DNA of 64,000 bases. Origin: a virus. Lineage: Duplodnaviria; Caudoviricetes. Position numbers and translations under genes: made by a program. The notes below the pieces were generated by a model. The model was not told the DNA's origin. It was given only the letters and a program-made list of their open reading frames with translations, and did not search any database. Shown in pieces: positions 2,448 through 63,430 of this stretch. Every line of letters starts with the position of its first letter. Within the stretch, counting starts at the first letter, position 1. The stretch spans positions 1 through 64,000 of the IMG/VR virus record IMGVR_UViG_3300028048_000056, one strand, 5' to 3'.

Positions 2448-2517
2448 GGTTTTGCTTAAATGCAAGGTTTTGTAACGTACACACGGTTACCTCAAACCAC
2501 TGCATTTAAGCAAAACC
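2448..2517. repeat. Long hairpin with 17-bp terminal inverted repeat GGTTTTGCTTAAATGCA; twin at 63360
   Basis: Arms 2448-2464 and 2501-2517, inner GGTTT/AAACC and GTAAC/GTTAC pairs, followed by T-run. Confidence 0.85.
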
Positions 2518-2599
2518 TTTTTATTTACACGAGTCATTGATAATTCGACGTATAATAAGGTAACGGGTGAGAGCCTGAATTTGAGAAAGGATGATTTGT

Positions 2600-3934
2600 A
2601 TGGTAAAGACTTATCAGTATGGTGACGCAATCCAGCTCACCGAGCATTTCAATTCTTCTGAGTTCCGCTGCAAGCCTGACGCTAATCATAATGCACAGCA
2701 CGAGTACAAGATAGACGATGACCTCGTCCAGAACCTCGAAAAGCTGTTCACAGTTATTCCGCAGCTGTTCGGGATTAAGGTGTCTAAGATTTGTCTCACC
2801 TCTGCCTATCGTTGTTATACTCATGACATTGCAGTAGGAGGCAACGGTACCGGTCCGCATACAGAAGGTTGGGCAGCTGATTTCATTGCCTATGACGAGA
2901 ACGGAGCTCCTATCAGCAGTAAGATGGTTTGCTGTGCCGCTCAGGAAATCGGCTTCCGAGGCATCGCGAATATCACCAGTGCATATATCTATACGCATTG
3001 TGATATGAAAGACAGAAAGAATGCCAAAGGTCAGTCCTACAGATGGTTCGGCAACGAAGTCTACGGTACTGGTACCGTCACTAATGACTTCTGGACCTAT
3101 TACGGTTTGACGCCGAAGACTAATAAGTCCGAACCTGAGGTTGTCAAACTCAAAGGTATTGACGTGTCTGAATTTCAGGGTGACATCGATTTCAGCACGA
3201 CAGCTGCTAACATCGATTTCGCAGTGCTACGTGCTGGATTCGGTCGCTACTCAACTCAGGAAGACAAGAAATTTCAGCGAAATTATGCCGGTTTCAAGAG
3301 AACTGGCACACCTATGGGTGCATACTGGTATTGCTATGCTACTTCTGCTGACGAGGCTCGTAAGGAAGCAGAAGCGTGTATGGCTGTTCTTAAGGGTAAG
3401 CAATTCGAGCTTCCTATCTTCTACGATATTCTTGAGGATGACCACATCCCGAAACTGAAAGCTGCTGGTGATATTTCGAAGCTCATCAATGAAATCGTAC
3501 CAGCATTCTGCTCTGTCCTGGAACAGAACGGTTATTATGTTGGTGTGTACTGCAATACTTCTGGATATACCTATTATCTGAACGACCACAACAAGCAGCG
3601 TTACGTTCAGTGGGTAGCTGACTGGAGAGGTACCTGTGGATATGGTGGGGAGAAGGTTATGTGGCAGTATAGCTGCAAGGGTAAGGTTCCCGGTATTTCT
3701 GGTGACGTTGACAAGGATTATGCTTACTCTGACTTTGCCGTTATCAAGGAGAAGGGTTTCAACGGCTGGAATGCAGATGATTATAAGCCTGACCTCGAGA
3801 ATCCCGATGACTGGCCTGAAGACCCTGCAGTTCAGCCGAACAACCCTGAGACTCCTACTCCAGAGGAAGCAAAAGATGTCTTTGAGAAGATACTCAAGGA
3901 AGTTCATGAAATTAATCAGAAACTGGGTAGATAA
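2600..3934 (+). CDS. Endolysin: peptidase M15A domain plus GH25 muramidase
   Basis: LTEHFNSSEFRCK..SAYRC..H..G.AAD..HCD (M15_3) and GIDVSEFQG..LRAGFG..GAYWY..WQYS..VDKD (GH25); start chosen by RBS. Confidence 0.85.
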   Translation: MVKTYQYGDAIQLTEHFNSSEFRCKPDANHNAQHEYKIDDDLVQNLEKLFTVIPQLFGIKVSKICLTSAYRCYTHDIAVGGNGTGPHTEGWAADFIAYDENGAPISSKMVCCAAQEIGFRGIANITSAYIYTHCDMKDRKNAKGQSYRWFGNEVYGTGTVTNDFWTYYGLTPKTNKSEPEVVKLKGIDVSEFQGDIDFSTTAANIDFAVLRAGFGRYSTQEDKKFQRNYAGFKRTGTPMGAYWYCYATSADEARKEAEACMAVLKGKQFELPIFYDILEDDHIPKLKAAGDISKLINEIVPAFCSVLEQNGYYVGVYCNTSGYTYYLNDHNKQRYVQWVADWRGTCGYGGEKVMWQYSCKGKVPGISGDVDKDYAYSDFAVIKEKGFNGWNADDYKPDLENPDDWPEDPAVQPNNPETPTPEEAKDVFEKILKEVHEINQKLGR

Positions 3935-3969
3935 TCCCAGATACTTTGAAACGAAAGGAGGTGAGGTTC

Positions 3970-5538
3970 ATGTCGACAAATCTATCATCGCAAGCTGAAA
4001 CAGTTCTGAATGTTCGTGTCGTTGTGGGTAAACCACAGCCTGACGGTACTATTGCCGTTAGAACTGACAGACGTTTTAAGAACACCGCTACCAGACTTAT
4101 GACCGAGTCAATCTGTAATTACCTTGCTGGTGCTGAAAACACATATAAGCGAGGTCACGGACGTCCTAACTACATGGGTATAGGCACGATGGGCATCACA
4201 AAGCAGCCTACGGACGCTAACGCACAGGCTGAGGTAGCTGATAACTTCGAAGACACGACCTACGTCGAGGGTGAGACTACTCGTCCTTGGTTCGAATCAA
4301 CCTCACTGGCTTTAACGACTGTCTGCGGTCCCGTCAATATCGATACTGACGGCAATAACCTGCATTTCTGGGACCCATCTATGGCATGGGGAAAAGACGG
4401 ATTTACCGGCAATCTTTCAACTGAGCCTGTCTTCCAAGGTGAACTCTGTACTAATCTGAAACATTATGCCGATGAAAGCGAAGAGAATGAGCGTGTCTAC
4501 GATGATATCGAGCGTATTCCCATTCTAAGAGCAGACGTTCTATCTGATTGCCCTGCTGATTGGGACTACGGTGTAGACGGATACAGTTCTCAGGTTATTT
4601 TCTATGCTTACGCTTCTGTTGAGTGGGTTCACAAGCTACTCAAACCAGTTTATAAGGAAATCGTCAAGGACCCTACCACAGGTGAGGAGACAACGGTAGT
4701 CCATGAGGTAGGACCTCAACTCGATAAGATGGCGATTTCTGAGTTTGGTCTGTATGAGAAGAACAATACAGACCCACACGGTCTTGAGACGATGCTAGCA
4801 GGCTTCCGAGTTCCTTCAGCCGACGATCTGGTTTACGTCACCGATGGTGAGGTCATTCTAATCGAATGGAGAGTTACTGTACGAGCTGTTATGCCGAATG
4901 AGGGGGTTCGTATTACTGGTGAGCCTGCACCTACAGGTATTGCAGTTCTTGCAACGTACCTAGGTGAGAATTCAACTCGTGACAAAGAAGTTCAAGTTAC
5001 TGGTATTGTCAAAGGAGACCCTGGAGTACGTCAGGGTATTACCTGGACACTCGATAATGCTGATGAAGCAGCTGCTGGTACTCATCTATCAGCTAATGGT
5101 CTCTTAACTGTCGATAAGAACGAAAAGCTAGACGTTCTCTACGTGTCAGGGGCTTCTGTTGTCAATCCGTTCATAACTTCAAGGACTGCGATACTCACAG
5201 GTCTCTTGAAGAATTTCGTGACTGGTATCACTTTGACCACAGAGTCTATAACCAGCTTTGATGTTCAGTTCCGAGCTACTGTTCTAGGTCGCGGTACATT
5301 TTCTCAGAACGTCACCTGGAGGTTCGGAGACCAGAAACCAGACAAGTCAACAACCACAATCAGCAACACCGGCTTGCTGCACATGGACTTTGAAGAAACA
5401 GCTGACCGATTCCAGATTATAGCTACTTCTGTTGAAGATACAAGCGTGTACTCAGTTGCTGCTGTTGTCCGTATAGATAAGACAGCTGGTACTTATGTGA
5501 TATCCGATTTCACTATCTTAACCGAAGGCGGTGAGTAA
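3970..5538 (+). CDS. Tail/baseplate protein with two C-terminal Ig-like repeats
   Basis: Repeated VQ.T..V.G....Q.(I/V)TW......T.(L/I)S..GLL.(V/M) units; structural context. Confidence 0.6.
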   Translation: MSTNLSSQAETVLNVRVVVGKPQPDGTIAVRTDRRFKNTATRLMTESICNYLAGAENTYKRGHGRPNYMGIGTMGITKQPTDANAQAEVADNFEDTTYVEGETTRPWFESTSLALTTVCGPVNIDTDGNNLHFWDPSMAWGKDGFTGNLSTEPVFQGELCTNLKHYADESEENERVYDDIERIPILRADVLSDCPADWDYGVDGYSSQVIFYAYASVEWVHKLLKPVYKEIVKDPTTGEETTVVHEVGPQLDKMAISEFGLYEKNNTDPHGLETMLAGFRVPSADDLVYVTDGEVILIEWRVTVRAVMPNEGVRITGEPAPTGIAVLATYLGENSTRDKEVQVTGIVKGDPGVRQGITWTLDNADEAAAGTHLSANGLLTVDKNEKLDVLYVSGASVVNPFITSRTAILTGLLKNFVTGITLTTESITSFDVQFRATVLGRGTFSQNVTWRFGDQKPDKSTTTISNTGLLHMDFEETADRFQIIATSVEDTSVYSVAAVVRIDKTAGTYVISDFTILTEGGE

Positions 5539-62338: not shown

Positions 62339-62626
62339 ATGGTTTCAAAAGAAGACGACGAGGTTATCAATCGGCACTGCGAAAAGCTAGCACGCTTGGT
62401 AAGTGCCCTTAACGGTATTTCACCCTCCAATAAGACAGTTTCATCACTTGAACTCATCGTGAGGAACGTCGATGGCACGTCACAGGAAATAACCTTTGAC
62501 ACGAATGAGCTTGATACCTATCTATTGTTCAAGAGTTTGTCTGAGTTAGCTCAGACTCGCGAAGAACATCTGAGAAATAAAATGAAGGAGAATGAAGATG
62601 TCAGAAAGAATTTTTCGACCTGGTGA
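62339..62626 (+). CDS. Hypothetical protein
   Basis: GAAAGGA RBS. Confidence 0.6.
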
Positions 62627-62903
62627 TGTTGTCAAGCACTTCAAGAGAGAACTGCTCGAAGACAAGAACAATACCCAATATCTGTATGTGATTATCGGTA
62701 CAGCAACACACACCGAAACAGGTGAGAAGCTAATGCTGTATAAGCCGCTCTACGGTCCTCCTCCCTGTCTTGCAGGAGTTGACATGGCAGCACGTCCTTA
62801 CGATATGTTCATGTCTGAGGTGGACCACGAGAAATACCCAGAGGTGAAACAGAAATACCGATTCGAGGTATACGCAGAAGGAGGAAATTCCCATGAAGAT
62901 TAG
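62598..62903 (+). CDS. DUF1653-like protein
   Basis: [39 protein letters not shown]. Confidence 0.8.
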
Positions 62904-63333
62904 TATCAAGAAACTTACCGAAACAGCAACACTACCTACACAAGGCTCACCCCAGGCTGCAGGGTATGACCTGTATGCAGATTTGCCGGACGGTCCGATA
63001 ACTATCGAACCAGGTAGTATCCAGAAAATATCAACCGGTATTGCAGCAGCGCCGGAAGACACTGAAGTGGCTTTATGCTTATTTCCTAGGTCTGGTCTTG
63101 CTTCCAAGCACGGTGTTACGCTAATCAACTCGATTGGCTTGGTTGACTCTGATTATCGAGGTGAGATATGTGTACCGTTGGTTAATCACGGGCAATTCCC
63201 AGTCACGATAAAAGACAAAGACCGCGTTGCTCAGCTGGTTGTTCTCGGAATAACTCGAGCTGAATTCGAGCAGGTTGATGATTTACCGAATACCGACAGG
63301 GGTACGGGAGGATTCGGTTCTACCGGTGTCTAA
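62893..63333 (+). CDS. dut: dUTPase (trimeric)
   Basis: [38 protein letters not shown]. Confidence 0.95.
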
Positions 63334-63359
63334 AATCTAAACATGATATAGATGACATA

Positions 63360-63430
63360 GGTTTTGCTTAAATGCACGGTCGATGCGTGTGTAAATGTAT
63401 AACACAACATCATAGCATTTAAGCAAAACC
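63360..63430. repeat. Long hairpin, twin of 2448-2517
   Basis: GGTTTTGCTTAAATGC / GCATTTAAGCAAAACC with a different but pairing interior. Confidence 0.85.

Follow-up and report, generated by a model that had tools for sequence, protein, structure and literature searches.

Conserved intergenic islands depleted of GA/TC in an uncultured phage and their possible relation to 7-deazaguanine DNA modification

The DNA analyzed here comprises the first 64 kb (the window) of a 162,085-bp viral record, IMGVR_UViG_3300028048_000056 (hereafter G000), which represents a large lytic-type phage with a G+C content of ~45% and has no close relative among cultured phages at the DNA level. The window encodes an endolysin, an NAD-dependent ligase, a MazF-like protein (17573-18460) and six tRNAs; the latter were its only matches in an Rfam 15 search at the gathering score, which found no RNA family in any of the islands described below. 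Two phage sigma factor genes (18432-19028 and 136174-136809) and an HU-family gene (86933-87202) are also present in the genome. In addition to these genes, G000 contains ~25 discrete control regions of 60-170 bp, here termed islands, that are depleted of the dinucleotide GA and its complement TC. The islands occupy the starts of transcription units, with a gene end or a terminator on one side and the next promoter on the other, and their contents are heterogeneous, including terminator hairpins, promoter-like boxes, inverted repeats and recurring words. Most of them carry a central TGTATAAyTATACA-like box, which resembles a standard -10 region minus its GA, and the word ATGCGTTAGCGTGC recurs at ~10 intergenic sites.

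To delineate the islands, 80-nt windows with at most one GA/TC were collected and overlapping windows were merged into regions; a second, looser scan used 60-nt windows, and the controls comprised 20 first-order Markov genomes and the same test on other dinucleotide pairs. GA+TC account for 13.8% of all steps genome-wide, slightly over expectation (observed/expected 1.07-1.10). The 80-nt scan detected 11 regions in the whole of G000, six of them inside the window, versus 0-1 region in each simulated genome (mean ~0.15), which confirms the depletion described in the initial annotation. The same test returned one region for AG/CT, none for CA/TG, five for AC/GT and two for AA/TT. The 60-nt scan yielded 31 regions against a simulated mean of ~7, and the longest run without GA/TC spans 107 nt (32675-32782). 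The GA/TC density remains normal (0.11-0.14) up to the island edges, thus the islands are discrete; with such values, the idea that GA-rich flanks provide a designed contrast was rejected. A depletion of non-coding DNA as a whole was likewise rejected, the GA+TC to AG+CT ratio being 0.96 in non-coding (a crude estimate) versus 1.02 in coding DNA, and many long intergenic regions of G000 have a normal GA/TC content.

About 11 islands had been proposed in the window from hand counts, which proved exact: GA+TC occur once in 45405-45526 (the genome rate predicts 16.8), not at all in 17441-17500, three times in 38520-38662 and four times in 32656-32820. The regions near 12050 and 36610, correctly described as less extreme, hold seven GA/TC each versus ~22 expected, and an 18-mer said to be repeated is found exactly at 12176 and 45479. 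The proposed island at 27720, with 2 GA/TC in 41 nt, is too short to be counted and was detected by neither scan. The islands and associated elements are as follows (positions in G000):

2443..2531, island flanked by a 569-amino-acid open reading frame (ORF) and the endolysin gene; no more than one GA/TC per 80 nt
12107..12212, island between a terminator (~12016-12050) and the AACTTCG promoter of gene 12280
17430..17512, island directly upstream of promoter 17508, detected by the 60-nt scan
27720..27760, proposed island, not significant (2 GA/TC in 41 nt versus 5.7 expected)
32672..32790, the strongest island, upstream of promoter 32823, with the 107-nt GA/TC-free run
32823..32856, + strand, example of the promoter class: AACTTCG, 17-18 nt, TGTTATAAT
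35066..35150, island upstream of promoter 35181, with a 14-bp perfect inverted repeat at 35074-35124
36628..36760, weaker, AC-rich island upstream of promoter 36765, with 5 GA/TC in 133 nt
38505..38660, island upstream of promoter 38666, with a promoter-like box, the palindrome ACCACGTGGT and an intrinsic terminator
38581..38614, + strand, intrinsic terminator with a 10-bp stem, loop GTTA and a T run; GCGTTAGC lies in the stem-loop
43335..43472, island upstream of promoter 43487, with a promoter-like box and a terminator-like hairpin (43434-43462), detected by the 60-nt scan
45401..45541, island with a long inverted repeat (45416-45484) having 16-bp perfect arms with GCTAACG / CGTTAGC
63360..63435, island upstream of promoter 63441
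142862-142955, island heading the deazaguanine-pathway operon

The avoided unit within the islands is the GA/TC step itself. The raw ratios to expectation are 1.62 for AC/GT, 1.45 for CA/TG, 0.65 for AG/CT and 0.70 for GG/CC; once the copies touching GA are set aside, AG/CT rises to 0.95 and GG/CC to 0.98 of the genome rate, which identifies GA/TC as the unit that is primarily avoided. The eight trinucleotides that contain GA all stand at only 0.00-0.22 in the islands of six genomes, and the next-lowest trinucleotides in the same genomes, which are outside the selection, are AGG/CCT and GGC/GCC at 0.19-0.51. On one strand of the islands, GA occurs 22 times and TC 31 times, both being depleted, and AG and CT are equal in number; since both GA and TC are rare on the same strand, the constraint acts on the duplex. 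The AA/TT step is present at 1.08, and its copies not adjoining GA are enriched 1.49-fold; a few trinucleotides are enriched 2-3.6 fold. Two other descriptions of the islands were rejected, namely purine-pyrimidine alternation or Z-DNA-prone tracts (AA/TT 1.08 and, after correction, AG/CT 0.95 and GG/CC 0.98) and an excess of short palindromes, the counts of which are under the dinucleotide-shuffle expectation.

For comparative analysis, seven related genomes of 111-167 kb (G001-G007) were fetched whole; their DNA polymerases are 61-87% identical to that of G000 (as measured for the four closest) and their DpdA proteins, discussed below, are 89-98% identical. Each of these genomes contains 9-16 GA/TC-poor islands versus 0-3 for AG/CT, and in the four closest relatives the islands of G000 are found at corresponding positions. 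The identity of an island equals or exceeds that of every long flank match in 13 of 18 and 13 of 16 cases, with mean identities of 89-90% for islands versus 83-84% for flanks. For instance, the strongest island (32672..32790) is 89-91% identical in G001, G002 and G004 (flanks 78-87%), the island at 35066..35150 is 97.6% identical in G001 (flanks 81-84%), and those at 43335..43472 and 36628..36760 are 88% (flanks 73-80%) and 94-98% identical in the relatives, respectively. Thus, the islands are functional elements under strong constraint, and in most cases they surpass the genes on either side in conservation. The island at 12107..12212, which has an 87-nt run free of GA/TC and the word GCGTTAGC at 12177, is only 77-81% identical in the relatives, yet just three GA/TC are found there.

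The same comparison demonstrates selection against the creation of GA/TC. Across ~250-276 substitutions that distinguish the islands from their counterparts, the GA+TC count stays at 50-58, whereas random substitution would raise it to 98-107 and random replacement confined to the truly variable sites to 76-79; the deviation at variable sites has z of -3.8 to -5.2 in both directions and in two lineages. Moreover, eight of the 35 islands in the more distant relatives (G005-G007) have no detectable homologue in G000, and these non-homologous islands are equally GA/TC-free, with the same composition and word style. The avoidance at variable sites together with the likeness of non-homologous islands indicates that selection upholds the composition and not just a set of inherited fixed words.

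The islands adjoin a distinct class of promoters. The AACTTCG promoters, of which G000 has 40 near-identical matches, carry ATAGRTACA after TGTTATAAT, and their copies in the window span 16171-63475. Eight of the 11 proposed islands adjoin such a promoter, in agreement with the initial annotation, which placed most islands just upstream of promoters; besides the example listed above, island-adjoining promoters start at 17508, 35181, 36765, 38666, 43487 and 63441, the first of which drives the MazF-like gene and the sigma factor gene 18432-19028. Conversely, 32 of the 40 AACTTCG promoters have no island. The promoter spacers and leaders display no GA-specific avoidance (GA+TC 0.073 versus AG+CT 0.078 per nt in the spacers), and a need of RNA polymerase for bare promoters is therefore not supported. 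The -35-like word always contains TC, which places GA on the bottom strand, where it would be modified if GA were the DpdA target.

The capacity to form hairpins is restricted to a part of the islands. Ten islands were assessed by comparing the fold of each with its shuffles. Strong folding was obtained in four (z of -7.3 for 2447-2520, -4.4 for 38517-38660, -7.8 for 45410-45490 and -7.2 for 63358-63432) and marginal folding in three (z of ~-2.3); the remaining three (12107, 17437 and 36628) fold no better than shuffles, the first having no hairpin (z of +1.1) and the last no fold (z of -0.5). The island at 35066..35150 has z of -2.2. Hence the earlier description of many islands as long hairpins applies to these four, and their proposed role as cruciform platforms is tenable for a minority only. 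In the long inverted repeat 45416-45484, which belongs to the island with one GA/TC in 122 nt, two of the 26 pairs are altered on both sides in the relatives, that is, in a compensatory manner; the arm changes at 63358-63432 are not compensatory.

Several individual elements lie within or beside the islands. The island at 2443..2531 is a copy of a dispersed inverted-repeat element composed of TGCTTAAATGC, 38 nt and GCATTTAAGCA, and the island at 63360..63435 is its second copy in the window; arms of this element occur in at least nine places in G000 and also in G005-G007, and one copy (87222-87281) directly follows the HU-family gene. The intrinsic terminator at 38581 is the best terminator-like site in the 31-47 kb region, and its stem is kept in six genomes; it forms a small part of one island and leaves the depletion unexplained. 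In G005 (L067:2278-2420), the center of this hairpin, GCATGCGTTAGCGTGC, is reverse-complemented within the same stem, as if flipped. GA/TC-rich words such as GAACTCGAAGCTCC and its reverse are located just outside three islands (32590-32650, 38455-38485 and 45545-45560), and words of the same type at 32540 and 45565 lie beside a second promoter-like element, TATGTTATATAACACATCTAGCAG.

G000 encodes a set of genes for the modification of guanine in DNA. ORF 118505-119506 is a DpdA homologue (phrog_887, E 5e-46); its best match among cultured phages is gp7 of Streptococcus phage Dp-1, to which it is 37% identical over 98% of its length. It matches the DpdA of Pseudomonas phage iggy with E 3e-24 and 29% identity, the identity to the GA-specific enzymes being 27-29%, and has no match to the Pfam family TGT (PF01702). 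The precursor pathway is represented by QueF, QueC, QueD and QueE (145226-148327), FolE (148324-148908) and QueA (144093-145172), accompanied by a Vut_1 transporter (143058-143960). The QueD-bearing ORF (146427-147620) encodes 397 amino acids, the first half of which matches HNH endonuclease families; an HNH domain seems to have been fused to, or inserted before, QueD. No DNA methyltransferase of the three main Pfam families was found in G000, and a phage-encoded methyltransferase as the reader of the islands was rejected on that basis. In four relatives (L012-L015), the DpdA protein is 96-98% identical to that of G000, compared with 61-87% for the DNA polymerase; this points to an unusually strong constraint or to a recent exchange.

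Only two DpdA enzymes have mapped motifs, those of phage iggy and Escherichia phage CAjan, and both target the G in GA. The iggy enzyme installs 2'-deoxy-7-cyano-7-deazaguanine (dPreQ0) at 97% of GA sites, with nothing else modified (PMC10484667), while that of CAjan targets GA and GGC (PMC7544227); modifications of the DpdA type are introduced after replication (PMC10516641). Since the dinucleotide purged from the islands coincides with the only mapped DpdA motifs, the best reading, in our view, is that the islands serve as regulatory platforms from which the guanine modification made by the phage is kept out; we propose this tentatively, as a reading with close to, though short of, an even chance of being correct. 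The initial annotation had suggested protein-binding platforms kept free of a context-dependent modification; this suggestion gains from the presence of DpdA and of the preQ1 pathway with QueA and from GA/TC being the primary unit under selection, and it loses from the fact that homology does not reveal the GA specificity of this DpdA and that the other scanned DpdA phages have no such islands. The GGC deficit in the islands matches the second motif of CAjan, a post hoc match with a chance of ~8% (lowest two of 24). Among 6-mer palindromes other than those with GATC, the GA/TC-containing ones are not avoided (observed/expected 0.95-0.97) and the others are found at 0.60-0.82, which is weak evidence; since Dp-1 displays this pattern too, and iggy and CAjan have it in weaker form or not at all, it is not diagnostic.

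The proposed mechanism would operate as follows. GA is purged from both strands of the regulatory spacers, and the phage DpdA would replace guanine, presumably at the G in GA, after replication; the replacement base would be a preQ1-type 7-deazaguanine, possibly elaborated by the phage QueA and by sugar transferases. A GA-free island would then be ordinary DNA both in modified virion DNA and in unmodified nascent DNA, so that the proteins reading or bending it would meet the same surface at all times, and hairpins, where present, would likewise be constant in their behavior. Candidate readers include the two phage sigma factors, the HU-like protein and other regulators. More speculatively, a hypermodified genome with deliberately bare islands could constitute a second information layer, in which the control regions are read alike on incoming and nascent DNA and the rest, including the TC of the AACTTCG word, changes state; we regard this extension as possible rather than probable.

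Several observations weigh against the islands being kept free of modification. The closest characterized DpdA is that of Dp-1, whose DNA carries 2'-deoxy-7-aminomethyl-7-deazaguanine (dPreQ1) at only ~1.7% of G (PMC6884629), far under what a GA motif would yield; homology is uninformative as to whether the G000 enzyme is specific for GA. By the normalized scan, the first 50 kb of Dp-1 have no islands and CAjan has one; the first 50 kb of T5, the annotation of which lists no DpdA, also have none. Loci of 70 other DpdA homologues (1.17 Mb) contain 10 GA-specific versus 2 AG-specific islands, a weak excess that corresponds to about one-sixth of the island density in the G000 clade. An IMG/VR contig that offers a natural contrast to this clade, G008 (77,776 bp, L092-L095), encodes QueA and a DpdA of 58% identity and has 24 copies of the AACTTCG word, yet it contains no GA/TC-poor 60-nt windows versus ten AG/CT-poor ones and also lacks the TGCTTAAATGC element. 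The ten GA/TC-free tracts of iggy are mostly located in Gln/Ala/Pro-rich low-complexity coding DNA; two intergenic regions at its right end, 59949-60219 and 60367-60628 (L046/L047), are nevertheless strongly GA/TC-poor, with five GA/TC each versus 25 and 21 AG/CT, respectively, so that iggy is ambiguous as a positive control. Furthermore, the conserved TC in AACTTCG, taken together with the normal promoter spacers, suggests that RNA polymerase itself does not need bare DNA. Finally, GATC is near-absent from G000 (10 versus 673 expected) and throughout the clade (1-41 versus ~470-670 expected), which argues that protection does not depend on a GA modification, should such a modification be general.

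Two further observations concern the words of these genomes. The iggy regions 3145-3522 and 59949-60219 have the word GCAAGCCGCCAAA in common. Other avoided words in G000 include GGCC (41 versus 186), ACATGT (1 versus 16) and TTTAAA (2 versus 23), as well as ATGCAT and TACGTA; the avoided words are a classical restriction-avoidance signature beside DNA-modification genes.

The main rival explanation is that the composition of the islands is a by-product of their vocabulary, i.e., that they are arrays of clade-specific regulator sites together with terminator and promoter elements, the words of which (CAC/GTG, ACG/CGT, GCA/TGC, GTA/TAC and TATAC) happen to lack GA/TC, modification being irrelevant. 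The 2-3.6 fold enrichment of a few trinucleotides and the recurring motif families fit this explanation, as do the absence of both islands and the TGCTTAAATGC element from G008 despite its DpdA and QueA and the lack of islands in most other DpdA phages. It would have to account for the fact that unrelated elements are all GA/TC-free, including two motif families, promoter-like boxes, terminator stems and the spacers between them, for the substitutions at variable positions, which still shun GA/TC (z of -4 to -5), for the non-homologous islands of G005-G007 that share the property, and for AG/CT, which has the same base content and is not avoided once the GA-adjacent copies are removed. To our knowledge, DNA mechanics offers no reason to single out GA over AG. 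We therefore consider a vocabulary by-product rather unlikely, though a serious contender.

An enzyme other than DpdA that acts on TC or GA, such as a DarT2-type ADP-ribosyltransferase, a TC-preferring DNA deaminase or a nuclease, might instead be avoided where the DNA turns single-stranded or extrudes hairpins. The avoided unit is strictly a dinucleotide and is avoided on both strands, four islands have a strong hairpin potential with compensatory changes in one, and AA/TT not adjoining GA is raised 1.49-fold, as a TC-to-TT pressure would give. However, ATC, GTC, CTC and TTC are depleted alike (0.00-0.22), unlike the longer DarT2 motifs (TNTC, TCT), and six of the 10 islands have little or no excess folding; in view of these NTC contexts and of the absence of hairpins from most islands, the initial suggestion of DarT2 targets has no specific support. 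Being more conserved than genes, the islands are not mutational debris, and a host enzyme of this kind is not known here; the phage, by contrast, has a guanine-swapping enzyme of its own, from a family with a known GA preference. All this makes another enzyme improbable. A constraint at the RNA level, under which the islands would correspond to transcribed leaders or to small RNAs shunning GA and UC as targets of, for instance, a phage MazF-like or host ribonuclease, seems very improbable. It would agree with promoter-like boxes followed by terminators inside islands, with a G-T wobble in the 38581 stem that fits a + strand RNA helix and with the MazF-like gene at 17573-18460. Nevertheless, one and the same strand is purged of GA as well as of TC, which would require two specificities, the wobble becomes a mismatch on the + strand owing to the flipped hairpin center in G005, the GA/UC content of coding RNA is normal, and there is no Rfam match.

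If the islands are indeed kept free of modification, they would be a first example of a phage genome fitted to the DNA modification that the phage itself makes, with regulatory windows left unmodified, and would be relevant to the question of how bulky bases are accommodated by transcription and by DNA-binding proteins. The target motif of a DpdA-type enzyme in an uncultured phage might then be predictable from sequence alone, as the locally purged word, and islands such as 32672-32790 and 45401-45541 would be precise regions in which to seek modification-sensitive proteins. Should the link to modification fail, an explanation would still be needed for ~25 non-coding elements that exceed the neighboring genes in conservation and obey a strict dinucleotide taboo.

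Among known systems, phages iggy and CAjan resemble G000 in having a homologous DpdA with a preQ0/preQ1 pathway, and the dinucleotide purged from the G000 islands is their mapped target, with GGC low too. They differ in that the G000 DpdA is only 27-29% identical to theirs and the G000 pathway continues to QueF and QueA; CAjan lacks such islands by the scan, and the tracts of iggy are mostly coding low-complexity DNA. Neither of the two papers contains the words 'intergenic' or 'promoter', so no motif-free regions are described there (PMC10484667, PMC7544227), and we found no description of motif-free islands in deazaguanine phages in the published literature. Dp-1 shares with G000 the FolE, QueD, QueE, QueC and QueF set and the near-absence of GATC; in contrast to G000, it has no QueA, no island in its first 50 kb and a modification of only ~1.7% of G. 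Classical restriction-site avoidance is similar in that selection acts against short words because an enzyme reads them, and G000 has both kinds of avoidance; however, the classical form is genome-wide and concerns palindromes of 4-6 bp, whereas the islands represent a local loss of a dinucleotide in ~25 regions of 60-170 bp, with GA/TC at 1.10 genome-wide.

Vertebrate CpG islands offer a conceptual parallel, since these promoter-associated patches are unmethylated, keeping the target dinucleotide and excluding the enzyme. In both cases, short promoter-associated patches would be free of a modification that covers the remaining genome; however, the G000 islands would escape by lacking the target itself. 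Another parallel is Bacillus phage SPO1, which has hydroxymethyluracil (hmU) DNA, phage sigma factors and the HU-like protein TF1, which prefers modified DNA. G000, likened to it by layout and not by sequence, is also large and lytic, with many strong early promoters, two sigma factors, an HU-family gene and presumably non-canonical DNA; the arrangement proposed here would reverse the preference of TF1, its proteins being served by the unmodified sites of an otherwise modified genome.

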